Shown: positions 30,883-51,347, counted from the stretch's first letter. The stretch is DNA of 64,000 nt from Clostridia bacterium (GCA_036307105.1 JAXJYD010000026.1:2-64001), one strand, 5' to 3'. Notes: a model not told the origin generated them from the letters alone. Numbers and translations are program-made.

Positions 30883-30917
30883 ATAAGTGTAATCTAGAAA
30901 CAGAGGAGTGATGTATA

Positions 30918-32220: not shown

Positions 32221-32248
32221 TATTTTATAATCTGATAAATATATTAAA

Positions 32249-32540: not shown

Positions 32541-32570
32541 CAAATTTATAAAAATAAGCCTAGTAGTTAG

Positions 32571-32671: not shown

Positions 32672-32714
32672 CGGTTTATAATAGATTCATTCTTATTGAT
32701 TGGAGGAATGAATT

Positions 32715-33677: not shown

Positions 33678-33979
33678 TATAAATTATACATATAAAATAA
33701 TACAGAAAATGAGTTTAAATAAACAAATGTTTATCTCATTTTTTGTCCTTATAGATTATGAAATCAGTGGAAACAATTAAAGTCCTATCATTAATTTGAA
33801 GAGTAACTGAATTAGTTTTATAATGTGATAAATCAATCACATATTGTTCTAAACCTGTAGAATTGTTATTTCCACCAATATACTTGTAATTACTTTAATT
33901 CCATCAAGTATATCAAAAATATCTTTTCTTGGGACTATCTTTGTGTTATAATGATAGTAATTAAGAAAGGTGGGTAATT

Positions 33980-34420
33980 ATGAGGATAGTAATACAAAGA
34001 GTTGACCAAGCTAGTGTTAATGTAGATAGTAATGTAGTAGGAAAAATAGGCAAAGGATTTGTAGTTTTATTAGGAATTAAGAATACAGATACATATAAAG
34101 ATGCTGATTATTTAGTAAGGAAATTAACAAATTTAAGAGTATTTATGGATGATAAAGATAAAATGAATTTATCTTTATTAGATGTAGAAGGTGAATTATT
34201 AATTATTTCCCAATTTACGTTATATGGCGAATGTAAAAAAAGTGGAAACAGACCGTCGTTTTCAGAAGTAGCAAAGCCTAATATTGCAATACCACTATAT
34301 GAATATTTTATAAATGAATGCAAAAAGGTAATTCCTATAGTTCAAACAGGAACTTTTGGAGCTCATATGAAAGTTGATTTAATAAATGATGGACCTGTTA
34401 CAATTATTATTGATTCATAA
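33980..34420 (+). CDS. dtd: D-aminoacyl-tRNA deacylase
   Basis: MRIVIQRV...SQFTLYG...GNRPSF...GPVTIIIDS. Confidence 0.92.
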   Translation: MRIVIQRVDQASVNVDSNVVGKIGKGFVVLLGIKNTDTYKDADYLVRKLTNLRVFMDDKDKMNLSLLDVEGELLIISQFTLYGECKKSGNRPSFSEVAKPNIAIPLYEYFINECKKVIPIVQTGTFGAHMKVDLINDGPVTIIIDS

Positions 34421-34447
34421 AAAATAGAATTAGGAGGAAATAAAAAA

Positions 34448-35530: not shown

Positions 35531-35556
35531 ACTCACGGAGAAACTACAATTTAACA

Positions 35557-35590
35557 ACTTGTTCGCACTATTTTGATTTTGCGAACAAGT
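35557..35590 (+). repeat. Perfect 10-bp stem hairpin of the modular repeat family
   Basis: ACTTGTTCGC (35557-35566) / GCGAACAAGT (35581-35590) with a 14-nt loop. Confidence 0.6.
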
Positions 35591-35922
35591 GAATAGGGAA
35601 TATAGTAAAATTTGCAATTTATGAGATAAGAACTAAAAATCTTCAAAATTGCAAATTTTTGTTATTTTGAGGAAAATTAAAAATATTAGTAAATTTTATA
35701 AATTTAGAAAAATTATTAGAAAATAAAAATCTAAGAAAAAATAAAATGAAAAAAATTTTGATAAAAAGAAAAACTTAAAAACAAAAATAAATTTAATAAT
35801 TTACAAAAAGATAAACATTTAAAAATTTATAGAAATCTAAGTGAGGGAGGTAAGAAGATACCATATTGATTGACCTAATTTCTTATATATAACATTGCAC
35901 AAAATAAAAGTTTTCGAACATT
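35591..35922 (+). repeat. Left-array terminus repeat unit plus dif-like site copy S3
   Basis: GAATAGGGAAT G-box, AAAATTGCAAATTTT, an A+T-rich tract of about 250 nt, AGTGAGGGAGGTAAGAAGATACCATATTGA block, then CATTGCACAAAA-TAAAAG-TTTTCGAACATT (35893-35922). Confidence 0.7.
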
Positions 35923-35993
35923 AGAATGTTGATATATCAATAATTATACGTTATATAATTAAAATATTGACATCGAAAAAAAACGCAAAACTA

Positions 35994-36105
35994 TTGACAA
36001 ATTCAAAAATATTATGTATAATAAGTAAAGATGTTATGAGATAATTAAATATAAAAATGCAGATATGGAAACCAAGGGAGTATTCTCTTTGATTTCCATT
36101 TTTTA
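35994..36105 (+). promoter_or_regulatory. Consensus promoter followed about 45 nt later by an intrinsic terminator (short RNA or attenuator)
   Basis: TTGACA 35994-35999, 17-nt spacer, TATAAT 36017-36022. Hairpin ATGGAAA...TTTCCAT (36065-36099) plus T6. NUDIX gene RBS follows at about 36160. Confidence 0.5.
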
Positions 36106-36171
36106 TTGTGAAGTTTTATACTGAGTAATCAAAGATTCTTTCTGGTTTCAAATATATTAAAAGGAGGAACA

Positions 36172-36609
36172 ATGAATATGAGTGAAAGACATGTTTCAAA
36201 AATAGTAGTTGATTTACTACTAGAAAGGAGGAATTCGACAACAGGAAAAACAGAAATTCTAATGATGTTAGCAGAGTATTTAGACAATCAATATGATTTA
36301 CCAGGAGGACATTTAGAACCAGGAGAAGATTTATATGATGCAATGATAAGAGAAGCAAAAGAAGAAATAGGAATTACGATTAAAAGAGAAAATATGCAAA
36401 TAGTACATATTTATCACCATTTTAGTAAAGATGTATTAAAATTTGTGTTTAAAGTAGCAAATTACAGTGGTGAAATAAAAAATTTAGAGCCTGAAAAATG
36501 TAAAGAAATAAGATGGATAGACATTAATAATTTGCCAGAAAATACAATTAAGGGTATTAAAAATGAGATAATAAACATTTACAATGATGTATATTACAGT
36601 AAAAATTAA
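36172..36609 (+). CDS. NUDIX hydrolase
   Basis: Nudix box GGHLEPGEDLYDAMIREAKEEIGI. Confidence 0.8.
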   Translation: MNMSERHVSKIVVDLLLERRNSTTGKTEILMMLAEYLDNQYDLPGGHLEPGEDLYDAMIREAKEEIGITIKRENMQIVHIYHHFSKDVLKFVFKVANYSGEIKNLEPEKCKEIRWIDINNLPENTIKGIKNEIINIYNDVYYSKN

Positions 36610-36623
36610 AGGAGGATAATAAA

Positions 36624-36881
36624 ATGATAGATTTACATATACATACTACTTGTTCAGATGGGCAATTAACTGTAGAACAGTTACTAGAAAAAGCAAATAA
36701 TGCAAGACTATCTGTAATTTCATTTTGTGATCACAATGTTCTAGGAGCATATCAAATATTAGATAATATGGATTTAAACAAATATAGAACAAAAATTATA
36801 ACAGGTATAGAATTCGATTTTGTATTTAATCATAAAGACTTTCACATGTTGGGATATGATTTTGAGAAGAATACTGTTTAA
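36624..36881 (+). pseudogene. 3'-truncated PHP-domain phosphoesterase (first ~80 codons only)
   Basis: MIDLHIHTTCSDG...SFCDHNVLGAY aligns with the N-terminus of the full-length PHP protein at 47686-48567, then stops. Confidence 0.7.
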
Positions 36882-37000
36882 AAAATTATACACAGATAGA
36901 AATTCATGAAAGGTAAATTATTATTAATATAATAAAGAGCTAAATATATTAATTTTTGTATATTTAGCTTTTGAACTATTATAAATTGATATATAAGGAA

Positions 37001-37305
37001 ATAGGGGAATAGTAGATAAAAATTTCAAAAAATACAAACTTTTTGGTTTTTTTATAAAAATAAATTTATAAAATCTAAAATAAAAAAATTTATAAATAAA
37101 AATTAATGAAATATAAGGTTTATAAAAAAGTTTAACAAATATATAATTAACGAGATTAAAAATCTAATTTAATAATTAAATATGATTTAATTGGAAACTA
37201 CTTTAAATCCAGCAAAAACAACATAGAAGAGACAGAGGGAAATAGATCAAAAGTAGTATAAAAAGGAATATATAACATTGCACAAAATAAAAGTGTCCGT
37301 GCATT
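37001..37305 (+). repeat. Left-array terminus repeat unit plus dif-like site copy S4
   Basis: ATAGGGGAATAG G-box, an A+T-rich tract, a block shared with 32400-32510, then CATTGCACAAAA-TAAAAG-TGTCCGTGCATT (37276-37305). Confidence 0.65.
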
Positions 37306-37335
37306 CATATTTATACAATTAAAGCTGATAGTTTG

Positions 37336-37364
37336 TTGTAATTATCAGTCTTTTGTTATATAAT
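37336..37364 (+). promoter_or_regulatory. sigmaA-type promoter (same module as 32571-32599)
   Basis: TTGTAA 37336-37341, 17-nt spacer, TATAAT 37359-37364. The surrounding GTTGTAATTATCAGTCTTTTGTTATATAAT is identical to the copy upstream of the recombinase gene. Confidence 0.6.
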
Positions 37365-37439
37365 GAGAAAAATCGTAATATAGTAATATTGCAAATAAGT
37401 TTGATAAAGAAAAATAGTAATTTGAAAGGAGATTAAATT

Positions 37440-38099
37440 ATGGGACTATTTAATAAAAAAGAAGATAGAAAAGAGGGAGAAAAGTCTGAGTTTTATGCTA
37501 CTGGTTGGGATGCAATCGACGAAGAAGCCAAAAGAATATATCCAGGTCAAGATAATCCAAAACATTATGCAGCTTTGATTAAATGGAGATTGGGTGGACC
37601 AGATCCACTTGATGGTATAAGTGTATATGATGGTGGAGATTATTGGCATTTCGTAACTTACGGATTATCAGAACTATATGAAAAAGAAAGCGAAAATAAA
37701 GAGTGGAGTGGTTACGGGATGGAATTTACTTTTAAATTAAAAAAAGACAACTATGTAGATGAAGAACAAGAAATAAAGTGTATTTGTGGAGTATTACAGC
37801 AAATTGCACGAATTACTTTTAAAAATGGTGAAATATTTAATCCATTTGAATATCTATATACAGGACAAACAGTAGGTATTGATTCAAGACAAATTTCAAA
37901 TATAACAGGATTCATAACAATACCAGATACAAAATTCCAAACATTAAATACGAAAAATGGTAGGGTTGATTTTGTTGAATTTATTGGTGCTACAAATAAT
38001 GAATTATTAGCACTTAAAAATAAAGAATTAGATGTAAAAACTTTGTATAGAAAAATAGGCAGTGATGTGACTGATTATAATAGAAAATCAGTTATATAA
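37440..38099 (+). CDS. Suppressor-of-fused (SUFU)-like domain protein
   Basis: YPGQDNPKHYAALIKWRLGGPDPLDGISVYDGGDYWHFVTYGLSELYEKES...GYGMEFTFKL is typical of bacterial SUFU-like proteins. Confidence 0.75.
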   Translation: MGLFNKKEDRKEGEKSEFYATGWDAIDEEAKRIYPGQDNPKHYAALIKWRLGGPDPLDGISVYDGGDYWHFVTYGLSELYEKESENKEWSGYGMEFTFKLKKDNYVDEEQEIKCICGVLQQIARITFKNGEIFNPFEYLYTGQTVGIDSRQISNITGFITIPDTKFQTLNTKNGRVDFVEFIGATNNELLALKNKELDVKTLYRKIGSDVTDYNRKSVI

Positions 38100-38124
38100 A
38101 TTACAAGTTATTGCTGAATTAAAT

Positions 38125-38153
38125 TTGAAAAAAAAGTAGTATTATGCTATAAT
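38125..38153 (+). promoter_or_regulatory. sigmaA-type promoter of the riboswitch-controlled gene
   Basis: TTGAAA 38125-38130, 17-nt spacer, TATAAT 38148-38153. Confidence 0.6.
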
Positions 38154-38164
38154 ATTAGTAGATA

Positions 38165-38250
38165 TGTAAAAAGCAAAATAAACGAAAGTTTATGACGCAA
38201 AGCCAATGGTCTAAAGGTTATATAATAACCCACGATAGCAGGTTGCACAG
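38165..38250 (+). promoter_or_regulatory. c-di-GMP-I (GEMM-I)-like riboswitch
   Basis: GCAAAAT-AAAC-GAAAG-TTTAT-GACGCAAAGCC-AATGG-TCTAAAGG...CC-CAC-GATAGCAGGTTGC follows the GGCAAACC..GAAAG..GACGCAAAGCC..CTAAA..GGTAGC.GGGTTACC order of GEMM-I. The 3' end abuts the GAGGAG RBS. Confidence 0.65.
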
Positions 38251-38266
38251 AAGAGGAGTGGTTGTT

Positions 38267-38935
38267 ATGAATAAAAAGAAAGTATTAAAAATAGTATTAT
38301 TGATTATTTTAGTTATATTAATTGTTTTTATGGTAATAACAATTAGAAGAATGATAATAATTAAAGCCTTAAGTGAAAAAGTATCAAAATATGTAACTGA
38401 TGATAATCATTATGAAAAAATTATAAACAATTCTATTGAAACAGAAACTATTACAGAGTATTATTGTAGAGGAAATAACGCAGTAATGTTTTTGACAACA
38501 ACTACAAAAAATACTGGGGAGAAAAGAAAACTTACTCAATATTTTAAAGGCGACAAATGCAATACTTATATTGAAACGGATAAAGATAAGATTGCAATAT
38601 TGGACTCCAACGGAATTCCAAGTAAATTAACAATATGGGGATTAGATTATAATGATAGTTTATGGAACTTGTTTTATTTAGCAGTAAAAACACCTATAAG
38701 AAGTGTAAAATATAATAATAAAGAATGTTATTTCTTGAATTCACCTATTGCAAGAAATTGCTATATGGAAAAGGATACAGGGTTAATACTTAAAGCAATT
38801 GATGGACAAATAGAAGATGCCAATGGAAATGAAACAGATATAATAGTTGAGTATAATTATGAATTTGGTAATGTTGATGAGAGTATATTTGAAGAGCCAA
38901 ATATTAGCGAGTATAAAGTGCAAGAAAATCAATAA
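38267..38935 (+). CDS. Hypothetical membrane-anchored/exported protein
   Basis: MNKKKVLKIVLLIILVILIVFMVITI signal-anchor. GGAG RBS before ATG 38267. The upstream extension of the tracked ORF overlaps the riboswitch. Confidence 0.6.
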   Translation: MNKKKVLKIVLLIILVILIVFMVITIRRMIIIKALSEKVSKYVTDDNHYEKIINNSIETETITEYYCRGNNAVMFLTTTTKNTGEKRKLTQYFKGDKCNTYIETDKDKIAILDSNGIPSKLTIWGLDYNDSLWNLFYLAVKTPIRSVKYNNKECYFLNSPIARNCYMEKDTGLILKAIDGQIEDANGNETDIIVEYNYEFGNVDESIFEEPNISEYKVQENQ

Positions 38936-38943
38936 TTATTATG

Positions 38944-38973
38944 AGAAGATGATGTAGTAATCATCTTCTTTTT
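38944..38973 (+). terminator. Intrinsic terminator
   Basis: AGAAGATGA (38944-38952) / TCATCTTCT (38961-38969) plus TTTT. Confidence 0.75.
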
Positions 38974-39006
38974 AAAAAGATACAATAGAAATAATTAGTA
39001 GATATT

Positions 39007-39138
39007 CAGAAGGTTTGGATATTCAGAACAAGTAAAATATTCTAACTTGTCAACAATATTTTGGTATTGTTAACAATTATTAGAATGAAAAATTACAAGT
39101 TATTGAGATGTACAGAAATTTTATTTTTACGAACAAAG
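39007..39138 (+). repeat. Modular intergenic hairpin repeat
   Basis: CAGAAGGTTTGGATATTCAGAACAAGT, CAATATTTTGGTATTGTTAACAA and AATTACAAGTTATTGAGATGT modules, collinear with 9597-9735 and 11661-11737. Confidence 0.65.
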
Positions 39139-39160
39139 TAATTAATGAATTAGTAGTTTT

Positions 39161-39473
39161 GGAGGTAGGGGATTAAAACCTTCAAAATTGCAATTTTTTT
39201 GCTATTTTTATAAAAATATGTAGTTTTTGAAATTTCAGAAATTTTTGTAAAAATGAAAAATTTCGAGATTTTTTAAAATTTTGAAAATAATAAAATGTAA
39301 GTAAAAATAAAAATTGGAAATTACAAAATAGAAAAGGAATATAAAATAAAAAGTTGATAAAATAATTTTAAAATGTATAAAATCACAAAAACATAAAAAC
39401 TAAAAAAATTTGGAAATTAAAGTGAGGGAGGTAAGAAGATACCATATTGACTGACATAATTCGTGATATATAA
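39161..39473 (+). repeat. Innermost left-array terminus repeat unit
   Basis: GGAGGTAGGGGATT G-box. Perfect palindrome AAAATTGCAATTTT (39184-39197). An A+T-rich tract of about 220 nt. AGTGAGGGAGGTAAGAAGATACCATATTGACTGAC block. Confidence 0.7.
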
Positions 39474-39503
39474 CATTGCACAAAATCAAAGTTTTGTACA
39501 ATG
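39474..39503. other. Candidate chromosome dimer-resolution (dif-like) core site: 12-6-12 palindrome at the strand-switch point
   Basis: CATTGCACAAAA-TCAAAG-TTTTGTACAATG; the arms are reverse complements with 1 mismatch. Hand alignment of the 11-nt arms to E. coli dif GGTGCGCATAA/TTATGTTAAAT gives 15 of 22 matches. It lies between the last + gene (end 38935) and the first - gene. Confidence 0.5.
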
Positions 39504-40393
39504 AGAGATAGGAGTAAATTATAAAACCATACATATATGGTCCTACCAGCAAAATCTTGCAATTCCTTGCTATTACTAGTATTTAATCTATTTATTCTAA
39601 CAACAAACTATATTACTTTCTTATAAAACTCTCTTAAATTTGATTCTGAAGCCTCATTATTTTTAATTGTTCCTGGTTGGATTTTTTTTCATTATTGTAA
39701 CCACATATTTAAAAAAATTTATATAACTTTAGATTATTTTTATCAAAATTTCACAAATCCCCATATTTCAATATTTTGCTCAATTATTCAAACAACAAGT
39801 TATATGTCTAAAAAATAAAAACGCCTTAAAATCGATTCTCGTGCGTCGCTTTTTTAGCCTTTTTCGAGCATTTTTAATAAATGCCTAAAAATCAGCATTT
39901 TACTAAAAATTATATAATAAACACTAGATTTATAAATTAACATATCTAATCATAAACATATAACTTGTTTGATTAAATATAAAAATGTCTTAAAATCGAT
40001 TTTAGCGTGTTATAATTGCAAAATTATATTATGGATTTGTAATCTAAAATTGTATAATATTTTTATAAGAAAATTTATTAAATTAATTTATTAAATTATA
40101 ATGAAAAATTATTTACAAGCATTATTAACAAATGTTCGTTAATAAAAAATTATATAAAAAATTTAACTTTACACAAAATTTTAATTTTTAAAATTTCTGA
40201 ATCTTAATTACTAATCTTTTTTTACTTTAAATTATTTTAAGTTTAGTTTTATACTTTTAAGAAATTTTTATTTTATATAGAATAAATTTTTTATGTATTT
40301 ATTTTTCTGTTTTAAAATTTATTTTAATATTTTAAATCTCTTTTTTATACTTTTTATACATTTCTAAAAATAGCCTATTCCCCTATTCCCTAC
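39492..40393 (-). repeat. Right-array terminus repeat element B' (arm, 0.69-kb non-coding body, arm, A+T tract, G-box)
   Basis: TTTTGTACAATG at 39492 ... CTTTACACAAAA at 40167-40178, an A+T tract, then CCTATTCCCCTATTCCCTAC at 40374-40393. Internal boxes at 39631, 39821 and 39986. No ORF of 60 aa or more. Confidence 0.7.
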
Positions 40394-40431
40394 TTATTTC
40401 TTTGTATACATGAAAAAATACTATATAGCTT

Positions 40432-40746
40432 TTAAGTTATTCTTTTGCTGTGTTGAACAAAATTATTACTTAATAACTTGCCCAAACTACTTAAATTATC
40501 AATATTATTAGCTTTTGTATTAACTTGTTCAGCTTGTGATACTAAAACTTGTTCATAAGTATACTTTAACATTGATATTTTCTCTTGTTTTTGCTCATCT
40601 GTAGCATCATTACTGTTAAGCCTATATTCAAGATTATAACAATATAATTCTAATGCTCTCAAAATAAGTTCAACTTATCCATCTAATAGATTTAATTCTA
40701 CAGAATGAATTTTATTTTTATCAAATTTTCTTTCATAATCTGCCAT
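40432..40746 (-). pseudogene. Small conserved hypothetical gene with an in-frame TAA (paralogue of 51011-51297)
   Basis: MADYERKFDKNKIHSVELNLLDG*VELILRALELY... The TAA at 40677-40675 corresponds to CAA (Gln) in the paralogue. AAAGGAG RBS at about 40761. Confidence 0.6.
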
Positions 40747-40942
40747 TGTTTTATATCAACTCCTTTTTATAATAAATTATGCACAAAAAACCTCTGCTGT
40801 ATCAATTTGAACATGTCCTAATAATTCTTGAATAGTTCTAATATAGGTAATTTTGGACGCTATAAAAAATAGTATTACATTTTTTTATAATGTAACACTA
40901 TTTTTTATAATGTATCTTATTATCTTTTTAGTTATAATTTTC

Positions 40943-43579
40943 CTATAACCAATTTCCAACTTTTTTAATGTATATTTTCTTTACAATCTGAACTAAAATT
41001 ACATATAGGATAGTCAATCCTGCTACTATTAAATAATATAATGGTGGCATTATTTCAAAATGGAATGATTTAATATTATGCAATAATATTGGTGCAAATA
41101 TTGTTCCTATTATTGTAACCATTGTTAAACAAGTTAATATTGGGTTTGCTTTTGACTGTACAAAAGGTACTTTTTCAGTACGAACGAAATGAATTATCAA
41201 TGTTTCACTTATTAGACATTCAACAAACCATGCTGTTTGAAAATAACTTTCACTTACAGCTCCATTATATCCTAATATAAACCAAAATGCTAAAAACGCC
41301 AAAACATCTATTATCGAACTTACTGGTCCCATTACATTCATAAATGTTCCCAATCCTTTTGTATCCCATTTTCTTGGTTTTATTAAAAATTCCTCATCAA
41401 CATTATCATATGGTATTCCTATTTGAGAAAAATCATATAAAAAGTCTTGAATTAACATTTGAATTGGCAATAATGGTAAAAATGGTAAGAAAATACTTGC
41501 AATAAATATACTAAATACATCTCCAAAATCTGAACTTAAAGCCATTTTCATATATTTTATAATATTTCCATATACTTTTCTTCCTTCTATTACTCCATTA
41601 AATATTACTTTTAAACTTTTTTCTAATAAAATAATATCACTTGCTTCTTTAGCAATGTCTGTTGCTGTATTTACACATATTCCAACATCTGCATTATGTA
41701 GTGATGGTGCATCATTTACACCATCTCCCATATAGCCTACTACATGTCCATTTTTTCTAAGAGCCTTTATTATTCTTTCTTTTTGTAAAGGATTCATTCT
41801 AGCAAAAACATTTACTTCCTCAACCTTTTTAGCAAATTCTCCATCTGGCATCCTATCAATATCTGTACCTAATAATATTTTTGAATCTTCTATTCCTACC
41901 AAGTTACAAATATTTTCAGTGGCATATTGGTTATCTCCTGTTAAAATCTTTGTTGTTATTCCATATTCTTTTAATTTCTTTATTGTACTTTTTACTTCTT
42001 TTTTTGGTGGATCTAAAAATGCTACAAATCCTATAAATGTCATTTCTTTTTCATCATCGCTATTAAATATATCTTTTCCTCTATACTCTCTTTTTGATGC
42101 TAACGCGATTACCTGCATTCCTTGTTTTGCAAGATTTTCAGCATTTTTATTAATATTTTGTATCATTTCTTGAGTTAGCTCTTTATGTTCGCCATCTATT
42201 TTTACTTGATTACAACTTTTTAATACTTCTTCTAATGCTCCTTTAGTAATTATCCTATAATGATCATCATGTTTTACTACAATACTTACTTTTTTTCTAA
42301 TATAATCAAATGGAATTTCATCAATTTTTTCATAATTAATAACTTGTTCTTTTATTTTATGCTGAACTCCATATGTTATTACTGCTTTATCTACCAGATT
42401 TTTCATTCCAGTACTATAATAGCTATTTAAAAATGCATATTCTAATATAGATAAATCTTCTTTTCCTTCAACATTTATATATTTCTGTAATACTATCTTG
42501 TCTAATGTTAATGTTCCTGTTTTATCAGTGCATAAAACATCTATTGCACCTAAATTTTGAATTGCCTGAATGTTTTTTACTAATGTTTTTTTCTTTGCAA
42601 GAGTTTTCGTTCCTTTAGTTAAATTAACATTTACTATCATAGGCAACATTGTTGGAGTAATTCCAACAGCTACTGATAATGCAAATAGCACTGCTTCTAA
42701 TATATCTTTTCGTATAAATGCATAAATAATAAATACTGCTATTGAAACTACAACCATGTATTTTATTAATAATTTTGTAATTCCATTCATACCTTTTTCA
42801 AAATTTGTCGTTTCTCTTTTATTATCAATTTGTTTTCCCATACTTCCTAGATATGTAGAAAAACCAGTATTAATTACTATAGCTGTTGCATCTCCACTTA
42901 TTACACTTGTTCCCATTAAACATATATTTGAAATTGAAAATATTTCATTTGAGTTATTAAATTTATCTGTTTTTTCAATAGGCGCACTTTCACCTGTAAA
43001 AACAGATTGATTTAAAAACAAGTCCTTATTTTCTATAATCATTACATCAGCTGGAATAATAGAACCTGCATTTAGATGAATAATATCACCTTTTACAACT
43101 TTTTCTGTTCTTATTGTTTGTTCTTTTCCATTTCTTATAACCGTTGCCGTTGAAAACATTTCACTTTTTAATTTTCTATTGAATTTATATGTTGAATAAT
43201 TTTGGGCAAATTTTATCATAGCACTTACAAATCCAATTGCTAAAATAATAACTGTACCTAATGTATCATCACCAACAAATTTATTTATTATTGCTAAAAC
43301 AACTAAAATTAAAATAAATTTATCTTTAAATGAATTTATAAAAAAATAAAACCATGAATGTTTATCATCTTTTACAACAACATTTTCTCCATCTTCTTCT
43401 AATTTTTGTTCTGCTTCTTTATTTGTCAATCCTTTTTCAATATTAGTTTTAAGCTCTTTTATTATTTCTTGTTTTTCTTTTTGTGCAATTTTCTTATATT
43501 TTTCTAGTATTTTCTCATCATTATTACTCATTAAATTTTTATTTTTTAATTTGTTCTTTATAAAAAATAATCTAATCAA
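40943..43579 (-). CDS. mgtA: Mg2+-importing P-type ATPase (MgtA/MgtB-like)
   Basis: CTDKTGTLT phosphorylation site, TGES, MGDGVNDAPSL, 10 TM segments. TTG 43579 is 11 nt from GGAG; ATG 43531 is an alternative start. Confidence 0.88.
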   Translation of the reverse strand: MIRLFFIKNKLKNKNLMSNNDEKILEKYKKIAQKEKQEIIKELKTNIEKGLTNKEAEQKLEEDGENVVVKDDKHSWFYFFINSFKDKFILILVVLAIINKFVGDDTLGTVIILAIGFVSAMIKFAQNYSTYKFNRKLKSEMFSTATVIRNGKEQTIRTEKVVKGDIIHLNAGSIIPADVMIIENKDLFLNQSVFTGESAPIEKTDKFNNSNEIFSISNICLMGTSVISGDATAIVINTGFSTYLGSMGKQIDNKRETTNFEKGMNGITKLLIKYMVVVSIAVFIIYAFIRKDILEAVLFALSVAVGITPTMLPMIVNVNLTKGTKTLAKKKTLVKNIQAIQNLGAIDVLCTDKTGTLTLDKIVLQKYINVEGKEDLSILEYAFLNSYYSTGMKNLVDKAVITYGVQHKIKEQVINYEKIDEIPFDYIRKKVSIVVKHDDHYRIITKGALEEVLKSCNQVKIDGEHKELTQEMIQNINKNAENLAKQGMQVIALASKREYRGKDIFNSDDEKEMTFIGFVAFLDPPKKEVKSTIKKLKEYGITTKILTGDNQYATENICNLVGIEDSKILLGTDIDRMPDGEFAKKVEEVNVFARMNPLQKERIIKALRKNGHVVGYMGDGVNDAPSLHNADVGICVNTATDIAKEASDIILLEKSLKVIFNGVIEGRKVYGNIIKYMKMALSSDFGDVFSIFIASIFLPFLPLLPIQMLIQDFLYDFSQIGIPYDNVDEEFLIKPRKWDTKGLGTFMNVMGPVSSIIDVLAFLAFWFILGYNGAVSESYFQTAWFVECLISETLIIHFVRTEKVPFVQSKANPILTCLTMVTIIGTIFAPILLHNIKSFHFEIMPPLYYLIVAGLTILYVILVQIVKKIYIKKVGNWL

Positions 43580-43664
43580 TTTCTATGTATCTCCTTTTTT
43601 TATATTTTATAAAATTGTATCACTTAATATATTTTTTGTATATACTTTTTATATTTCTTTTTTC

Positions 43665-44050
43665 TCATATTACTTTGTTTTCTTCTTTTAAAAATTCACT
43701 TTCTATTTTTATATATTCTTTTAATATTGCAGTTGCCCATTTTCTAAACATTATACCACGTTTACTATTTACCCTGTATCCAACTGAAATAATCATATCA
43801 AGATTATAATATTGAACTTTATAATTCTTTCCATCTTCAGCAGTATGCTCAAAAAATGAGCATACTGAATTTTCTTCTAGTTCGCCATCTCTATAAATAT
43901 TTTGTATATGTCTAGTAATTGTTCTTCTGTCTTTATCAAATAATTCTGCCATTTGTTTTTGTGTAAGCCACACAGTTTCATCCTTTAAGTTTACTTATAA
44001 TTTTACTCCTTGGTTTTCAAATAAAATAATTTCATTCTTTTTTTCGTCTA
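43665..44050 (-). pseudogene. RhuM-family gene remnant (in-frame stop, truncated C-terminus)
   Basis: ...EIILFENQGVKL*VNLKDETVWLTQKQMAELF...YNLDMIISVGYRVNSKRGIMFRKWAT. It lacks the C-terminal half of the family. Confidence 0.65.
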
Positions 44051-44200
44051 TAAGAACACATCCTTTTATATAAATTTAGTTCTTAATATTTTTATTAGTT
44101 CATTTAAAATTCATTATTTATAACTTGCGAACTATTGTTTTTATTATATTTGATATTTTGATATCTGTCAACAAATTTTGTGGAATTTTATTAAAAAAAT

Positions 44201-44229
44201 GTACCACCCTTTAACTTAAAAGGTGGTAC
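44201..44229. terminator. A-run/hairpin/T-run bidirectional terminator-like hairpin
   Basis: GTACCACC (44201-44208) / GGTGGTAC (44222-44229) flanked by A7 and A5. The homologous copy at 50079-50107 is at the same position relative to the repeat element. Confidence 0.55.
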
Positions 44230-44245
44230 AAAAAATAGCCCAGTA

Positions 44246-45270
44246 TCAAAGTTTTGTGCAAATAGGAGTAAGGATACAAAAATAACCAGTATGTATTGCT
44301 ACTACTGGCTTTGCTGCACGTCTATCCTACTAAAATTGCTTATTTTCCTAATTATCTAATTATTATTCTATATTATATATAATTCTTTGTAATCTGCTTT
44401 ATTACTGTGTTTTAACTTACTTTGCTTATTATCTTATTACTATTATATTATTACCTATATTATTTTCCCAAAAACCCAACGTTTTTTATTTTAAAATATA
44501 ATTTTAAATACTTATTCTAATTTGTTTTATTATTTTATTAAACAAGTTATATGTCTTCCATATAAAAGTGCCTTAAAATCGATTTTAGAGTCTCAACCTA
44601 AATAAAGCCTGAAACATCAATATTTTCAGGCAACAAACTATATGGCTAATTTTTAAAAACGCCTTAAAATCGATTCTCGTGCGTCGTTTTTTTAGCAATT
44701 TTTGAGCAAAATCCCAGTTGTTGCAATAATTACAAAGATTTATACAAATCAAAAAAAATCACATATTATTATAATAAATATGTATAAAAATTAAATAATA
44801 ATTTTATAAAAGTGTTTATATAAGAAGATTTCATTAAATATAAAATAAAGTATTTAATATTTAGAGGATTAAGTTTTATTAGTTAATTATAAAAATGTCT
44901 TAAAAACGATTCTCAGAGGTCTAGATTTATAAAAATATAATTAAATACAAAAGTTTTTGTAAAAAATTTCAAAATCAACAAATGTTCGTTTTTTAGATTT
45001 ATTAACCGAACAATTTTAAAATTTAACATTGCACAAATTTAAAATAATAAATTTTGAAATCTAATAAATTAAATCTAAAATTTCTAAAATTCAAAAAATT
45101 TAAAAATTTATAATTTTATTTTTAAAAATATTTTTTAAATTTATTTTTATTAAAAATTTTTTTACTGACTTCTTCCCTTTTATTACTTTTAAAAATTTTT
45201 TAAAACTAAATATTATATTTTTAACAATTTTATTAATTATGAAATACCTCTATTCCCCCCTACTCTACCG
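44246..45270 (-). repeat. Right-array terminus repeat element C
   Basis: TCAAAG-TTTTGTGCAAAT (44246-44263), a 0.8-kb body with boxes at 44568, 44660 and 44896, CATTGCACAAAT (45027-45038), an A+T tract, CTATTCCCCCCTACTCTACCG (45250-45270). Confidence 0.7.
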
Positions 45271-45454
45271 TTTTTTATTAATAAAATAATTATACAATTT
45301 TAAATTTTCGTTCATTTTTACTTTTATCCTCGATATATAAATTATCATAGATATTTTAAGTTGCCGAATATTCTAAATCCACAATTAACATATGTTATTT
45401 ATTTAAATTAATTTGTTTAATATAATATATTCATATATTTTAGGAGGTTTAACT

Positions 45455-46129
45455 ATGAAAGTAAAAAATGCATATAAAGCTTTAATAATTTTAATGTTTA
45501 TAACAATTACAATTTCAGGCTATGAGTTTTTAACTGCACTTAAAAATTTTAATCCAAATGGTACAATTTTTGATTTTTGTAGCGGAGCGGTAGAATATAT
45601 CCCATATTTTATGATTTTCTTATTAGCACTTTTCTTAGTGCTTCCAATATCATTGTTGCTTTTTAAAGAAAACAACATCCAACTTAAATCCGCAATATTA
45701 GACAAAAAGCATTTATTTAAAGACATACTCTATGGAATTATTTTAGGACTTATATCAGAATGTATTGTTTATTTGTTTTATGTTATGCGTAATGCCGGCT
45801 CTACTTATGAACATACTATGATTTATAATAATTCTATTACATTCTACATTTTATATTTTCTTTCTTTATCACTAGTATGCGGAATATTAAAAGAATTATA
45901 TTTTAGAGGTTTTGCTAAATTCTTTTTAGCCGATATATTTGGCGAAAATTTTTCTTATCTATTAACTGCAATTTTATTTGGTATAGTGGATTGGCAAAAT
46001 ATGGGGTCTTCAGTAATTCTTGGTTTATTGTGGGGATTTGCTTATAAGAAAAATGGACGTCTTATAGTTCCAATGATAGCACACGGTTTAATAAACGCTT
46101 TAGGTATTATTGGATTGTTTATTCTTTAA
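45455..46129 (+). CDS. CPBP-family intramembrane glutamic endopeptidase (CAAX protease-like)
   Basis: KELYFRGF (EExxxR-type) and HGLINA (HxxxN) motifs, multi-TM. AGGAGG RBS before ATG 45455. Confidence 0.75.
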   Translation: MKVKNAYKALIILMFITITISGYEFLTALKNFNPNGTIFDFCSGAVEYIPYFMIFLLALFLVLPISLLLFKENNIQLKSAILDKKHLFKDILYGIILGLISECIVYLFYVMRNAGSTYEHTMIYNNSITFYILYFLSLSLVCGILKELYFRGFAKFFLADIFGENFSYLLTAILFGIVDWQNMGSSVILGLLWGFAYKKNGRLIVPMIAHGLINALGIIGLFIL

Positions 46130-46717
46130 ACTTTTTTTTATGCGGCTGAGAGATTGAGGTTCTATTCCTAGGTATGTTGCAATATCACATTGTTTTACTG
46201 TATCTATTAATTCAGGAAAATCTGTAACAAACTGCTTATATCTCTCAGTGGCATTTTTTGTCATAAATTCATTTTCACGGTAAATCTTATATCTCATCCC
46301 ACTTTCTAATGCTTTAATATAAAATTGATTCCATGTTTTATTATTATTTATTAATTCTTTTAGTTTTATAGTATCAAACAATAAAACAGTACTATCATTT
46401 ACAACTTCACATCTGTATTTTGATTCTGTAAATCCTAATAAGCTTTCATCGAAAAACATACTATATTTTGTATGGAAAAACCTTGTAATTTCTTTGCCAT
46501 CATATGTAATAAAAGAGGTTTTGATAATTCCATCCAGTATAAAGCCAGTTTGTGTTAATTCAGCTCCAATTTCGCATAATATATCTCCAGAACTATATTT
46601 GACTATATTTGCTTCTTTAATTAAAATATCAATATCCTCTAAAGTTATTTCTATATCATAGATTCTTTTTGCATCTTCAATTAATTGTGATTTAAGTAAT
46701 TTATTCATATAATCCAC
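46100..46717 (-). CDS. Crp/Fnr-family transcriptional regulator
   Basis: cNMP-binding-like N-terminal domain and a C-terminal HTH (QCDIATYLGIEPQSLSRIKK). Confidence 0.75.
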   Translation of the reverse strand: MDYMNKLLKSQLIEDAKRIYDIEITLEDIDILIKEANIVKYSSGDILCEIGAELTQTGFILDGIIKTSFITYDGKEITRFFHTKYSMFFDESLLGFTESKYRCEVVNDSTVLLFDTIKLKELINNNKTWNQFYIKALESGMRYKIYRENEFMTKNATERYKQFVTDFPELIDTVKQCDIATYLGIEPQSLSRIKKSLKNKQSNNT

Positions 46718-46793
46718 CCCTTTATCATTATATAGAAGATATTATAAAATAGCAACTGATTCATGTAATACATCTATAAAAAGGTAACTATTA

Positions 46794-47653
46794 TGAAAGT
46801 TTTGTGCAATAAAAGATAGGAACAAATATATAATACTCTAAATATGCCTCTATTCCTATATTTCAGACTATTATTGAAATATGATTTATTCCTTACTTTT
46901 AATCGTTTTATTTCTTACTTATTACTTACTATCTTAAAATAATTACTAAAATACTATCTTTATAATTATCAAATTGTATGTATTTATTTATTATTTTCTT
47001 ATAACAAATTTATATTACTTTAGTAAAAAAACATCTTAAAAGTTATTTGGCACGTTGGCTCAAAATACCCTTATATTATAGTCAACAAAACTATATGGCT
47101 AATTTTTAAAAACGGCTTAAACTCGATTCTCGTGCGTCGTCTTTTTAGCAATTTTTGGGCTAAACTCAAGTTGCTGCAATAATTACAAAAATTTATACAA
47201 ATCAATAAAAATTACATATTATTATAATAAATATGTATAAAAGTTTAAATATAATCTTATAAAAGTGTTTATATAAGAAGATTTCATTAAATGTAAAATA
47301 AAGTATTTAATATTTAGATGATTAGTTTTATTGGTTAATTATAAAAATGTCTTAAAAACGATTTTCAGAGGTCTGAATTTATAAAAATATAATTAATTTA
47401 TAAAATAATTTAAAAAATATTAATATACAAATGTTCGTTTTTTAAATTAATAAACCGAACATTTTAAAATTTAACATTGCACAAAATTTAAAATCGGATT
47501 TTTAATTTAAAATTTTCTGATTTATTTATAAACTTTCAAAATTTTTTATTTTAGATTTTATATTTTAAAAAATCAAATTTTTAAAAATTTATTTTTTTAT
47601 TAATATTTTAAATTCATAATTGTTGAAAAATCCGCTATTCCCCTACTCCACCG
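46794..47653 (-). repeat. Right-array terminus repeat element D
   Basis: TGAAAG-TTTTGTGCAATA (46794-46811), a body collinear with element C (boxes at 47032, 47113, 47348), CATTGCACAAAA (47475-47486), an A+T tract, GCTATTCCCCTACTCCACCG (47634-47653). Confidence 0.7.
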
Positions 47654-47685
47654 TTATTATAAAACTCAAAATTTATATGAATAGA

Positions 47686-48567
47686 TTATAAATTCCAATC
47701 AATTAAAATTTTATCTGGAACTTTTAAATTTCCTTTTCCGATACCTAAAGATATATCAGGCTTATTCTTGCCATGATAGTCACTTCCACCACTTATCAAT
47801 AAATTATGTGCTTTAGTAAATTTTAGTAATTTTTCATTTTCTATATTAGAGAAAATAGAGTGATAGCACTCAATACCATCTATATTGTATTTGCTTATAA
47901 TCTTTTTTAGTTCTAAAATTTTATCTTCAATTTCTTTATACTGATATATATGAGCTATAAATGCTTTTCCCCCTGATCGGTGTATAATATCAATTATTTT
48001 CTCAACTCTAGGATAATCCTTTGCCATATTTATGTAAAAAGTATTTCCTCTTATATGATAATGGTTATTTTTAAAATTCTTAAAATCTTCCCATAAATCT
48101 GGTGGGACTTTTGATTTGTTTTCTAAATGAGATTTAATCTCATTATAAAATACTATACTAGCCCAATCTCTTGTTCTATCCCAATTTAATTCATCAATTG
48201 GTCGCAAAGTTAATTGTTCCTTTAATCCTATTTTATAAAATTCTATTAATTGTGATTCTTGTATTTTTTGCCTAGTTATGTCTTTGTAACATTCTTCCAA
48301 GTATTTACTCATTTTTTTATAATTAATACCATATCCTAAAATATCCATAACAATGTCTTTGTATTGGCTTTTTAATTCGATACCATTAATTATATTCCCT
48401 TTAAAATAATCTTTAATATTTATTCTTTCGAGTTCATTATATGCACCACATGTTTCATGATCAGTAAACGAAATCGTAGTTAATCCTAATTTTTGTGCTT
48501 CTATTAAAATTTCTTTAACTGTTTTACTACCATCAGAATTTGTAGAATGTATATGCAAGTCAATCAT
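47686..48567 (-). CDS. PHP-domain metal-dependent phosphoesterase
   Basis: MIDLHIHSTNSDG, FTDHE, IAHIY, GGSDYHG. The start is 10 nt downstream of the AbiEii stop. Confidence 0.8.
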   Translation of the reverse strand: MIDLHIHSTNSDGSKTVKEILIEAQKLGLTTISFTDHETCGAYNELERINIKDYFKGNIINGIELKSQYKDIVMDILGYGINYKKMSKYLEECYKDITRQKIQESQLIEFYKIGLKEQLTLRPIDELNWDRTRDWASIVFYNEIKSHLENKSKVPPDLWEDFKNFKNNHYHIRGNTFYINMAKDYPRVEKIIDIIHRSGGKAFIAHIYQYKEIEDKILELKKIISKYNIDGIECYHSIFSNIENEKLLKFTKAHNLLISGGSDYHGKNKPDISLGIGKGNLKVPDKILIDWNL

Positions 48568-48577
48568 ATTTTACCTC

Positions 48578-49423
48578 CTAATTTTGTAAAATCTTTCCAA
48601 TTTGTTTCAAACTCTCAATTAAATTTTCATACTCTATATCTTTAGCATAAAAATTATCTTTTTGATATCTTTCCCATTGTTTTTTCATAATATTGCTATT
48701 TTCTAATTGCACAATTGATTTTGGCCATTCATTTATTATCGCTAATGAATTTCGATGTTCTGCCGTAGAATAAATAGCATTTTTCAATATATCATAATCT
48801 ATGTTTTTCTTTTGTGTATTTAATAACATATATACATCATAATAATCTCTAACTCTAGTTCCTAAAATTCCTCTTTTTATAATAGATTCAAATTTTTCAG
48901 CAATGACAGTTTCAATATTATATGACCAAATTTTTATTTTTCTATCTTCTAACATTAAATCAAAAGTATATTCAATTTCCTTGTATGTAATTTTATCTCC
49001 AGTAGTTATATCTATCTTCATAATAACTGGCATTGAATATAAATAATTGGCTTTAAAAGTAACTCTAAAGCCACCATAATCATCATCTTCTCTGATTAAC
49101 TCTATTTTTTGTATATCAAAAGTAACATCATCATCAAGAGATATATTACAAATTTCATTAATAATTTTGGTTATATTTTCTTCGGTAAGTTTAAATCCTT
49201 TTATAGTAGTATCCATATCCATTGTTGTTCTACTATCAATTCCGAGCATTGCTGAAATTAACATTCCACCTTTTAAAATAAAGTTATCTTTGTATTTTGA
49301 GATAGAAATTCTCTCTAAAAATCTTTCAAGCATATATGTTTGTAAAACTGATTGTGCAGAAACCTTATTCTCTTTTGCTATATTATTTATTATTGCTTTT
49401 AAACTCATTGGATTTCTTTTCAT
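48578..49423 (-). CDS. AbiEii/AbiGii-family nucleotidyltransferase toxin
   Basis: MKRNPMSLKAIINNIAKENKVSAQSVLQTYMLERFLERIS..KGG...RTTMDMD is typical of AbiEii. Overlaps the AbiEi stop by 4 nt. Confidence 0.85.
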   Translation of the reverse strand: MKRNPMSLKAIINNIAKENKVSAQSVLQTYMLERFLERISISKYKDNFILKGGMLISAMLGIDSRTTMDMDTTIKGFKLTEENITKIINEICNISLDDDVTFDIQKIELIREDDDYGGFRVTFKANYLYSMPVIMKIDITTGDKITYKEIEYTFDLMLEDRKIKIWSYNIETVIAEKFESIIKRGILGTRVRDYYDVYMLLNTQKKNIDYDILKNAIYSTAEHRNSLAIINEWPKSIVQLENSNIMKKQWERYQKDNFYAKDIEYENLIESLKQIGKILQN

Positions 49424-49995
49424 CCAAGTACCTCCATATATTGTGCTAATATTTTATCTATTTTAAATTTTTTTGCATATTCTGATAATAGAATTAAATT
49501 TTTATCTTTTCTTTTCATGTATTCGTTTATTGCTGTATTAAATATCTGCAAATCAATTTTGTTTCTATCTCTAATAATATCACACATAGTCCTTTCTAAA
49601 TTATAAATTTTTACGGTCAAATTTTTCTCTATTTCTAATTCTGTTAATCCTAAATTATATAATTCTTTTTTTATATAGTGTACATTTAATAAATCGTTAT
49701 TAATTCTATTATTACTTGGAAATGTCATATCTAATTTGAATGGAGTTCTATCAGTCATTCCATAAAAATATAAAGCAGTATTATGTGAGTATACACCATT
49801 TTTATATTTCTTTCCTGTTAACCAAAATTCATTTATATCTTTATTTGGACTAGCATATATACCATGAGCTATTCTGTTTAATAATCCTATTTGAACAAGT
49901 GAATATAAAACATGCCTATCTATAGGATATTCATCTAATTTATTAGCATAAATTATTCCATTATTCTTCTCTATAATTTTTTTATAATTTTCCAT
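49420..49995 (-). CDS. AbiEi-family antitoxin (type IV TA)
   Basis: MENYKKIIEKNNGIIYANKL...LVQIGLLNRIAHGIYASP wHTH. GGAGG RBS before ATG 49995. Confidence 0.8.
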   Translation of the reverse strand: MENYKKIIEKNNGIIYANKLDEYPIDRHVLYSLVQIGLLNRIAHGIYASPNKDINEFWLTGKKYKNGVYSHNTALYFYGMTDRTPFKLDMTFPSNNRINNDLLNVHYIKKELYNLGLTELEIEKNLTVKIYNLERTMCDIIRDRNKIDLQIFNTAINEYMKRKDKNLILLSEYAKKFKIDKILAQYMEVLG

Positions 49996-50078
49996 AATAC
50001 ACCTCCGACATTTCATATACATATTATAATTCAAATGTATATGAAATGTCAAATGAAATTTAAAATTAAACAAAAAAT

Positions 50079-50107
50079 GTACCATTCTTTAAGCCAAAGG
50101 ATGGTAC
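50079..50107. terminator. Bidirectional terminator-like hairpin (copy of 44201-44229)
   Basis: GTACCAT (50079-50085) / ATGGTAC (50101-50107) flanked by A-runs, followed by the shared AAAAATAGCCCAGTATC. Confidence 0.5.
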
Positions 50108-50123
50108 AAAAAATAGCCCAGTA

Positions 50124-50983
50124 TCGATCTTTTGTGTAAATAGAGATAGGATGCAAAAAGAAAATACTTAAATTAAGTACCTCCCTTGCAGATTTTGCTA
50201 TTCCTTGATATAAGCCTATTATAGCTATATTTTATAGACAATAAAACTACATTGCTTTTTAATTAAAACTCCTTAAAATTGATTCTAGAGCTTCATAATT
50301 TTGTATTATTTTTGGTTGGATTTTTTTTCATTATTATAACCTTATAATTTATAAAAAATTATATAACTTTAGATTATTTTTTCAAAAATTCGTAAATCCT
50401 TTCATTTCAGTATTTTGCCTTATTTTTTAGGCAGTAAACTATATGGCTAATTTTTAAAAATGGCTTAAAATCGATTTTCGTGCGTCGTTTTTTAGCCATT
50501 TTTTAGTACTTTTTAAAGATACTAAAAATTAAGCATTTTTGCAAATTTTACATTATAATTATTATATTATATAAATTACACATCAAAGTCTAGACATATA
50601 ACTTGTTGGATTTTATAATAAAATGTCTTAAAAACGATTTTGACGTGTTATAAATATAAATTAATATTATAAATCATAATCTAAATTTATATAATAATTA
50701 TCATTATAAAAAATCTATATTATTAAATTATTTAAAATTATATTTTTAACATAATTAACAAATGTTCGGTTCTTAAAATTATAAATTTAACATTGCACAA
50801 ATTTAAAATTTAATTTTTCAAACTAAAATTTTTATAATTTAAAATTTAAATTATAATTTTATTTTTATTTATAATTTTGTTTCAATTTTATATACTTATC
50901 TTTGATAAGTATAATATATTTAGAATTAAAAGTTTTTAAAATTACAAATATTCTAAAAAAACTGCCTATTCCCCTATTCCCTC
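50124..50983 (-). repeat. Right-array terminus repeat element E
   Basis: TCGATC-TTTTGTGTAAAT (50124-50141), a body collinear with B' (boxes at 50269, 50461, 50624), CATTGCACAAAT (50791-50802), an A+T tract, CCTATTCCCCTATTCCCTC (50965-50983). Confidence 0.7.
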
Positions 50984-51010
50984 TTAATTTTATAATATTT
51001 ATAAAAAATT

Positions 51011-51297
51011 TTAAATTGCTTTTAATATATTGTTTGCTTTAGTATTACCAAAATCTTCACTTAATAATTTGCCTAAACTGCTTAAATTATCAAGATTATC
51101 AGCTTTAGTGTTTACTTGTTCAGCTTGCGATGCTAAAATTTGTTCATAAGTGTATTTAAGCATTGATATTTTCTCTTGTCTTTGTTCATTTGTAATTCTA
51201 TTACCATTTAACATATAATCTAAATTATAACCATATAGTTCTAAAGCTCTTAGTATTATTTCAACTTGTCCATCTAATAGACTTAATTCTACTGATA
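51011..51297 (-). pseudogene. 5'-truncated paralogue of the small gene at 40432-40746
   Basis: ...HLSVELSLLDGQVEIILRALELYGYNLDYMLNGNRITNEQRQEKISMLKYTYEQILASQAEQVNTKADNLDNLSSLGKLL. An in-frame TGA lies upstream and the paralogue's N-terminus is absent. Confidence 0.55.
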
Positions 51298-51347
51298 GAT
51301 GTAGAATTCACGATGAATTACTATTTATATAGTGTAATTTATAATTA

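Follow-up and report, generated by a model that had tools for sequence, protein, structure and literature searches.

Non-coding repeats beside a dif-type site at the replication terminus of an uncultured gut Clostridia bacterium are probably the ends of captured gene cassettes

Several described systems gather mobile genes at sites of Xer recombination. Integrative mobile elements exploiting Xer (IMEX) insert at chromosomal dif, where one good arm and the centre are found next to a degenerate second arm; a functional dif is restored on one side and successive insertions lead to arrays (PMC5357621; bioRxiv 10.64898/2026.06.12.731946). The single-recombinase Xer modules XerS/difSL (streptococci), XerH/difH (Helicobacter, Campylobacter) and XerA/dif (archaea) act at a terminus site with an 11-6-11 architecture, and the single-recombinase Xer system of the Legionellales was uncovered via mobile element integration (PMC5357621, PMC9765430). 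The pdif or dif modules of Acinetobacter are small gene modules bounded by Xer sites that reassort between replicons and strains (PMC11705084, PMC12907356). In chromosomal integrons, small cassettes, most of them poor in promoters, form an array that varies between strains and adjoins a tyrosine recombinase system. Here, a stretch of 64,000 nucleotides from a Clostridia bacterium (GCA_036307105.1 JAXJYD010000026.1:2-64001), called the window below, is compared with these systems. Its subject is a set of four non-coding repeats (elements B', C, D and E) that lie to the right of a dif-type palindrome.

The four repeats are best explained, with a probability of roughly 0.7, as copies of the non-coding DNA beside dif, each brought in by a cassette. 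In this view, accessory genes were captured here and now form a stack that differs between strains. By analogy, the system is best described as IMEX-like dif arrays together with an Xer module of the single-recombinase type, whose gene lies beside the site (XerS, XerH; PMC9765430). As in IMEX, insertion is exactly at dif, with one conserved arm and centre and one degenerate arm. Unlike IMEX, the host belongs to an uncultured Clostridia clade, and the arms of the site are near-palindromic, which would suit a single recombinase. Furthermore, arrays grow on both sides of dif, the right-hand cassettes include 0.7 kb that apparently duplicate the leader between dif and the recombinase gene, some relatives have genes for a protein of 109 aa (p109) and for one or two Xer-like recombinases of their own, and the cargo consists of small accessory gene sets instead of filamentous phage genomes. 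New here are the host clade, the site sequence, the two-sided growth, the 0.7-kb leader copy and the recombinase-plus-p109 relatives.

Related contigs and loci are labelled with L-numbers (L001 etc.). As in the single-recombinase modules, the recombinase gene lies immediately beside the site in L113, L116 and L017 and in related viral contigs. The protein, however, is under the NCBIfam cut-offs for XerC, XerD, XerS and XerA, and the site ATTGCACAAAA-TCAAAG-TTTTGTGCAAT is distinct. The locus is neither a pdif module nor an integron as these are defined. Modules of the pdif type have two complete inverted XerC/XerD sites, whereas the sites here, at the chromosomal terminus, are directly oriented hybrids with a single good arm. 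A likeness to integrons is a promoter-like box (TTGAYT-16/17-TATAAC) that abuts the L arm in some left units. In contrast to integrons, there is no IntI (integron-integrase models score 80–106 bits against a cut-off of 265), attC-type folded sites are absent and the platform is dif.

The window has a G+C content of about 25%. Its cumulative GC skew reaches a maximum at 39–40 kb, where the sign changes, and the gene directions converge on the same point, which marks the replication terminus. The host is a low-GC, spore-forming, uncultured member of the gut Clostridia, and the region is its replication terminus. The chromosomal dif-type site is located at this GC-skew switch (39475-39502). It is a 28-bp palindrome with the 11-6-11 architecture of dif and consists of ATTGCACAAAA (L arm), TCAAAG (centre) and TTTTGTACAAT (R arm). 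A scan of one-genome-per-species contigs for exact matches to the most conserved 24 nt of the repeats, CTTAAAATCGATTCTCGTGCGTCG, gave at least 120 genome stretches, nearly every one from a different uncultured Clostridia assembly (among them Clostridium sp. CAG:343, CAG:492, CAG:780 and CAG:921), and the same 24-mer is present in 11 phage contigs. Among the matches listed, the full site ATTGCRCAAAA-N6-TTTTGYGCAAW is located 130–440 nt to one side of the core in 84 loci, mostly with TCAAAG as its centre, and rho ends just past the palindrome in about 48 loci. The original prediction held that abutment of the innermost left and right units creates the palindrome. Since it is present in the 84 related loci, it is instead an ancestral site that is conserved in its own right. 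In two species (L092, L126) rho is 4.5–5 kb off on the body side of dif and points at dif; the dif-body module is thus inverted relative to rho.

The same prediction described four homologous elements without open reading frames (ORFs), and this description proved accurate in coordinates and layout. On the + strand the order in all four is 6 nt, an arm of the TTTTGTGCAAT type, a body of 673–787 nt, an inverted ATTGCACAAA arm, an A+T tract of ~150–215 nt and the complement of a G-box. The G-box complements are of the ATTCCCCT type (40377-40392, 45250-45270, 47635-47653 and 50966-50983). The arms are TTTTGTACAAT (39492-39502) and TTTACACAAAA (40168-40178, with two mismatches) in B', TTTTGTGCAAA (44252-44262) and ATTGCACAAAT (45028-45038) in C, TTTTGTGCAAT (46800-46810) and ATTGCACAAAA (47476-47486) in D, and TTTTGTGTAAA (50130-50140) and ATTGCACAAAT (50792-50802) in E. 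Arm matches with at most one mismatch number 30 in the window, compared with 13.3 ± 4.0 in shuffled sequence, and none of 100 shuffles reaches 30. Nine of the 12 exact matches are within the two arrays and a tenth is upstream of a recombinase gene, at 58258.

B' and E align over 660 nt with 76% identity, and C and D over 419 nt with 89% identity. Bodies of unlike type have only a repeated unit in common (84–197 nt). Thus, the division into two body types, B'/E and C/D, is borne out. The longest ORF in any body has 59 aa or less. ARAGORN found no tRNA in the bodies, and no Rfam family matched them at gathering thresholds or at E≤1; a known structured RNA is therefore ruled out.

Strain comparisons reveal which part of the region moves. 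L006 and L008 are 99.6–99.7% identical to the window at 27581/29718-35914 and then run straight into the R arm and a body, which in L006 is an E-like body directly at dif. Accordingly, the window has two extra cassettes (35911-37293 and 37294-39491), placed right after the 6-nt centre. On the right-hand side, L131 is without cassettes C and D. In a three-way alignment, L131 passes from the sequence that flanks the ATPase cassette into body E, and this switch falls inside ATAGCCCAGTA-6 nt-TTTTGTGCAAA. Body C, its half-site, the CPBP and cNMP (cyclic nucleotide)-regulator genes and the weak arm GGTAACTATTA travel as one block. In L152, L153 and L155 the block immediately adjoins a full dif, whereas in the window and L156-L159 it is behind a hybrid site. 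In L160-L163 a SUFU cassette keeps its own weak arm, TGTCCGTGCAT, with differing cassettes after it. These blocks define the right-hand mobile unit as R arm, body, half-site, A+T tract, G-box, cargo, weak arm and 6 nt.

Left hybrids have the order L arm, centre, weak arm and right hybrids the order weak arm, centre, R arm; the one full palindrome is at the inner boundary. Weak-arm/centre/R-arm hybrids followed by bodies are also present in other species (L026, L075, L081, L114, L115, L120, L123, L127). Body B' is 96% identical to the body of L077, which is another species, and C is 94% identical to that of L105, whereas B' and E share just 76%. This relationship, closer to other species than to paralogues, indicates acquisition rather than local duplication. 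The cargo is wholly different from one unit to the next.

Two tyrosine recombinases are encoded in the window, one of the XerA type (32715-33677) and one Xer-like (58341-59333). At least 20 related loci have a homologue of the latter (63–92% identity) that agrees with the window gene both in strand and in side of dif. The simplest order is present in L113 and L116, with dif, ~70 nt (L113) or ~310 nt (L116), one unit, 88 nt and the start codon of the recombinase; L017 is similar. A full site adjoins the gene in L113, L116, L017 and L201. In the window the gene is 18.8 kb from dif, a distance over which the cassette stack displaced it. A half-site, ATTGCACAAAA (58258-58268, + strand), is located ~70 nt upstream of the gene, and a half-site is found 60–110 nt upstream of the recombinase gene in L016, L017, L028, L095 and L102 as well as in the window. 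A search of viral contigs with the family alignment returned further members with a full palindromic site, made up of the same arms, 65–320 nt upstream (L171/L172, L187/L188, L201). In L172 (and L171) the site overlaps a TTGACA-17-TATAAT promoter, in L172 at the L arm.

From these positions the 58341-59333 family is proposed as the recombinase cognate to the arms. The protein scores below every NCBIfam equivalog cut-off (XerC 229/335, XerD 208/330, XerA 201/220, XerS 160/267), so it has no named membership among these four, and the nearest solved structures are XerA and XerD. In relatives, conserved non-coding DNA separates dif from the recombinase gene, and the body appears to be a copy of this DNA; the inverted second arm of the body would correspond to the half-site that precedes the gene. 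Many small viral-like contigs (IMG/VR, L166-L192, 4.4–9.5 kb, 31–47% G+C) end in a recombinase 41–51% identical to the window enzyme. A few of them have their own palindromic 11-6-11 site just upstream, e.g. ATTGCGTAAAA-GAGAAA-TTTTACGCAAT in L187/L188.

In the proposed mechanism, the 28-bp palindrome would be the dif of the chromosome and the Xer-like enzyme (58341-59333) the recombinase. The ancestral layout would have had the recombinase gene directly downstream of the site, as in the simplest relatives. Cassette stacks on both sides of dif would enter by site-specific recombination, and each insertion would restore the full site on the inner side and leave a hybrid of good arm and weak arm on the outer side. 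On the + strand a right-hand cassette would read R arm, body, half-site, A+T tract, G-box, minus-strand cargo, weak arm and 6 nt. Read in this way, the four elements are the ends of four cassettes, in each case the end nearer to dif; among them, E is probably the resident copy.

The anatomy of the bodies was derived from an alignment of 66 related loci and is found in the same order in the window copies. The body starts with the R arm and AGAGATAGGAG. A hairpin follows 15–30 nt from the site. Its stems vary by species yet stay paired (ACCATA/TATGGT, ACTCT/AGAGT, ACCCT/AGGGT, TACTTAA/TTAAGTA), and a T-rich (U-rich) tail comes after it on the strand read towards dif. On this strand the mean best energy is -7.0 kcal/mol, compared with -4.6 in shuffles; a strict terminator rule is passed by only 11 of 84 loci, and the energy-based test is more informative. 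RNAalifold detects only a conserved outer pairing (GGTAGGA/TCCTAYC) in the hairpin region, due to misalignment of the variable inner stems by MAFFT. Next come three copies of a unit of ~75 nt that contains the near-invariant 24-mer, separated by poorly conserved sequence. The units are followed by the CAAATGTTCG box and, in about half of the species, by the half-site (A/T)TTGCACAAAA and T/A-rich sequence.

In the 64-kb window, a profile hidden Markov model of the unit gives 11 matches at E≤0.015 and a twelfth, weak one. Each of the four bodies contains three of them, always on the + strand, and none lies elsewhere; the middle copy is the best by far (E 1e-18 to 1e-22). Many copies can form AAAATCGA-N10-TCGATTTT, and the right half of the unit resembles the weak arms of the left hybrids (TTTYCGTGCGT).

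In the innermost body, B' (39492-40178, + strand), the hairpin is at 39524-39548, the units are at 39599-39651, 39787-39859 and 39958-40009, and the CAAATGTTCG box (40129-40138) precedes a degenerate half-site (40168-40178). The outermost body, E, together with its hybrid site (TCGATC and TTTTGTGTAAA), spans 50124-50802 (+ strand) with the hairpin at 50165-50179, units at 50236-50294, 50426-50497 and 50589-50641, the CAAATGTTCG box at 50759-50768 and the half-site at 50792-50802. The hybrid site of C (TCAAAG and TTTTGTGCAAA) and its body span 44246-45038 (+ strand). Here, the hairpin is at 44286-44308, the units are at 44540-44585, 44624-44697 and 44872-44914, and a TGTTCG...CGAACA palindrome (44979-45012) precedes the half-site (45028-45038). 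The corresponding features of D (46794-47486, + strand; hybrid site TGAAAG and TTTTGTGCAAT) are the hairpin (46816-46859), units at 47080-47149 and 47328-47366, a weak unit (47007-47041), a TGTTCG...CGAACA palindrome (47429-47461) and the half-site (47476-47486).

In about 15 species an operon of two Xer-like recombinases and the 109-aa protein precedes the G-box. This trio always points towards dif and ends at the G-box (L091 at 186-2550, L021, L030, L041, L049, L074, L076, L096, L097, L105); in L074 it is on the rho side instead. The trio recombinases have 345 and 331 aa and are ~35–40% identical to each other and to the 330-aa enzyme of the window. No relative of p109 was found in Pfam, NCBIfam or the PDB. 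In the window p109 is present only as pseudogenes, which adjoin B' and E, and cassettes C and D encode no recombinase. At the E-side position L131-L136 have an intact p109, a 92-aa integrase fragment and a CI-like helix-turn-helix repressor. A segment of ~1.1 kb with the repressor, the integrase fragment and the start of p109 (L131 3167-4285) is absent from the window at 51295, a loss that accounts for the truncated p109 pseudogene. The phage-like contig L147 carries a holin, an integrase, a p109-like gene, one unit and a weak-arm/TCAAAG/R-arm site. Such content points to dif-targeting integrative elements as relatives of the cassettes, which would be degenerate or non-autonomous forms.

The unit is also found outside such arrays. 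It is located upstream of recombinase genes in both orientations and beside dif-type sites in L147, L148 and L150. L147 and L148 each have one integrase and a hybrid site, and L150 combines the unit with a full dif palindrome, recombinase-like matches and a p109-like gene. In eight phage contigs (L141-L146, L149, L151; IMG/VR) the unit alone, without a dif arm, occupies intergenic regions, for example between holin-like and lysin-like genes or next to XRE-type repressors. The unit might serve as an operator or attenuator, or recombination might use it as an accessory or secondary site. For the body a role in cis is proposed: it may serve the attachment site as an accessory or regulatory arm, or it may keep transcription from running into dif. 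In L155 partial units of opposite orientation are present left of dif, at 1899 and 4791 (4740-5135), and the one at 4791 is just before the left-hand G-box; the mirror symmetry thus extends to unit fragments in some strains.

Several other assignments for parts of the body were considered and abandoned. A minus-strand promoter in the unit (TTAGAC-17-TAAAAT) fits upstream of recA in L105 and L074, but the hexamers are lost in the phage copies. A hairpin between GYCTAA and TTAGRC, which flank the core, was rejected since there is no covariation. The CAAATGTTCG box was rejected as a LexA (Cheo) box because its left half-site is not conserved as GAAC. A scan with the sigma-70 consensus gave 134 sites compared with 113 expected and has no discrimination in A+T-rich DNA. 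A likeness of ACTATATGTCTAAA to the Ter/RTP sites of Bacillus was set aside, as the sequence is of low complexity and its context does not fit.

A number of points weigh against the cassette reading. The XerA-type enzyme (32715-33677) and the recA/recB/p109 trios of relatives would be alternative catalysts. The related loci were picked by an exact match to the 24-mer, and the invariance of the core is partly a product of this choice; conservation of the site and of the remaining blocks is independent of it. Circular intermediates are presumed, as no circle or excision product was observed and no metagenome scan aimed at one was made. The unit also stands solitary in phage intergenic regions without any arm. 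Finally, the ATPase cargo in L131 is joined to a C/D-like body, unlike in the window, and the breakpoint falls in the p109 pseudogene. Bodies and cargo are therefore also reassorted by homologous recombination.

This last difference in body and cargo combinations would also suit a model in which each body is a small integrated circle, a mini-IMEX, that entered an earlier weak site and had its own full site split into two inverted arms. Joining the right arm to the 6 nt and the left arm would indeed remake a full 11-6-11 site. Still, this model is unlikely. The L131 breakpoint is within the p109 pseudogene and not at an arm, the right arm is followed by T/A-rich sequence without a partner arm, many species have bodies without a right arm, and a half-site of that kind also precedes the recombinase gene. 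No strain or species comparison contains an insertion or deletion of a body only. Of the options offered originally, Xer-type integration is the one of the right kind: strains differ in the cassettes that they have, the junctions are exactly in the 6-nt/arm region and the arms match the site upstream of the recombinase family genes. The body alone, on the other hand, is not the integrated circle, since the polymorphic right-hand blocks always include cargo. Even less probable is an origin of the bodies by tandem duplication in place, or unequal crossing-over of the dif flank, with no horizontal transfer. The bodies are direct repeats of similar length, and their common sequences would favour unequal exchange. 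However, they are 94–96% identical to bodies of other species as opposed to 76% (or the unit only) to paralogues, the cargo is fully unlike between units, and one cassette is found at different array positions by strain.

The bodies might primarily be functional transcription units or leaders, as non-coding RNA or attenuated leaders needed by each cassette. This possibility is compatible with the cassette model and is doubtful rather than remote. The compensatory stem changes of the hairpin and its U-rich tail 15–30 nt from the site speak for it, as do the potential AAAATCGA-N10-TCGATTTT hairpin with a U-run in the unit, the position of the unit upstream of recombinase genes in both orientations and the promoter that overlaps the site in L172. 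The bodies lack an Rfam match, however, a larger fold shows no covariation, the sequence between units is poorly conserved, and the phage copies have not kept the candidate promoter hexamers. The inverted arms that bound every body and the tyrosine recombinase genes nearby also led to the suggestion of invertible segments for phase variation. This has hardly any chance of being correct: relative to the asymmetric TCAAAG centre, units, hairpin and box have a single orientation throughout, both in the four window copies and in all related loci that have the site (84, among the matches listed), and no gene or promoter is positioned to be switched by flipping. The terminal inverted arms of 10–11 nt and the lack of ORFs had likewise suggested miniature inverted-repeat transposable elements bounded by terminal inverted repeats, or decayed protein genes. 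Both are largely refuted. There are no target-site duplications, every unit copy of the window is inside a body, whole bodies adjoin only dif-type sites among the matches listed, and the conserved parts are short blocks, as is typical of DNA or RNA motifs, without a codon pattern. A Ter-like fork trap with the units as polar protein-binding sites around the terminus would agree with the location, with the single orientation on one side of dif and with the partial mirror-image unit opposite in L155. It is nevertheless most improbable in view of the other contexts of the unit, which is found upstream of recombinase genes and in phage intergenic regions and travels with cassettes; furthermore, the left side is normally without units.

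A wider proposal is put forward tentatively. The gut Clostridia clade may use dif as an integron-like capture platform that grows on both sides, served by a distinct Xer-like family with the site in its own promoter region. The ~75-nt unit might then be a new cis element, either an accessory recombination site or an attenuator/operator, that cassettes and phages must carry. If the cassette reading is true, the range of site-specific gene capture at dif would widen beyond Proteobacteria to include uncultured gut Clostridia that are abundant and of low GC, in an unusual form with two-sided arrays, a near-palindromic site and cassettes that carry the dif-flanking leader of the host. The arrays of the window contain genes for an AbiE toxin-antitoxin (type IV), NUDIX and PHP proteins, transporters and regulators, and strain contigs add genes with Fic and SLFN/AlbA domains. 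As the arrays vary between strains of one species, the terminus is a hotspot of strain-level variation. Short-read assemblies break at such arrays. The short unit, which recurs across many genomes and phage contigs, offers a concrete subject for experiments on binding, transcription and recombination.

In right-hand cassette 1 the A+T tract and G-box (40179-40392, minus strand) are followed by the cargo (40393-44245, minus strand). This comprises a p109 pseudogene with an internal stop (40432-40770), a P-type ATPase (40943-43579), a RhuM-like fragment (43665-43973), a hairpin terminator (44200-44230) and the weak arm ATAGCCCAGTA (44235-44245). The rest of cassette 2 (45039-46793) consists of the A+T tract, the G-box (45250-45270), a CPBP/Rce1-like gene (45455-46129, + strand), a cNMP-binding regulator (46100-46717, minus strand) and the weak arm GGTAACTATTA. 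That of cassette 3 (47487-50123, minus strand) contains the A+T tract, the G-box (47635-47653), a PHP-domain gene (47686-48567), AbiEii (48578-49423), a hairpin (~50079-50109) and the weak arm ATAGCCCAGTA. An ORF of 221 aa (49420-50085) is in the position of the AbiEi partner and has no family match. Exact-protein look-ups returned no record for the Crp-like, AbiEii and PHP proteins as delimited. The outer end (50803-51300, minus strand) holds an A+T tract, a G-box (50966-50983) and the 5'-truncated p109 pseudogene (51011-51300).

The left array (30778-39474, + strand) has hybrid sites of L arm, 6 nt and weak arm that start at 30778, 32512, 35894 and 37277, and its last four cassette ends each have a G-box, an A+T tract and an L arm. 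A promoter-like TTGAYT-16/17-TATAAC box touches the L arm in left units 3 and 5 (39447-39476 and 35866-35893). The site might double as an operator, and the box might drive whatever is downstream of the site. A short ORF with a ribosome-binding site (MDKKKNKKKCITLHKIKVF...) runs through the hybrid site at 30778 (30745-30832). The homologous ORF at site 32512 (32463-32496) ends at a TATATAAC box, and the one at 37277 is without a start codon. In left cassette 1 the gene of an AAA_14/DUF4143 ATPase (30918-32220) is split into two ORFs by a frameshift, and two ORFs are called in L006-L008 too. Left cassette 2 encodes the XerA-type recombinase. A c-di-GMP-I riboswitch (72 bits, 38162-38250) precedes the 247-aa ORF of left cassette 4, and a SAM (S-box) riboswitch is located at 3601-3709.

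A second palindrome family (CTTGTTCGCAMTATT-TTGA-...CGAACAAG) is found just after genes (3108-3140, 11650-11730, 32606-32634 and 35558-35589), and the synteny of strain contigs breaks precisely at the centres of these palindromes (L001-L005, L009, L010). The block 32611-35589 encodes the XerA-type recombinase, a D-Tyr-tRNA deacylase and an aminotransferase. It is present in at least three genomic contexts at 99.7–100% identity, and several contigs hold just its first 2 kb.

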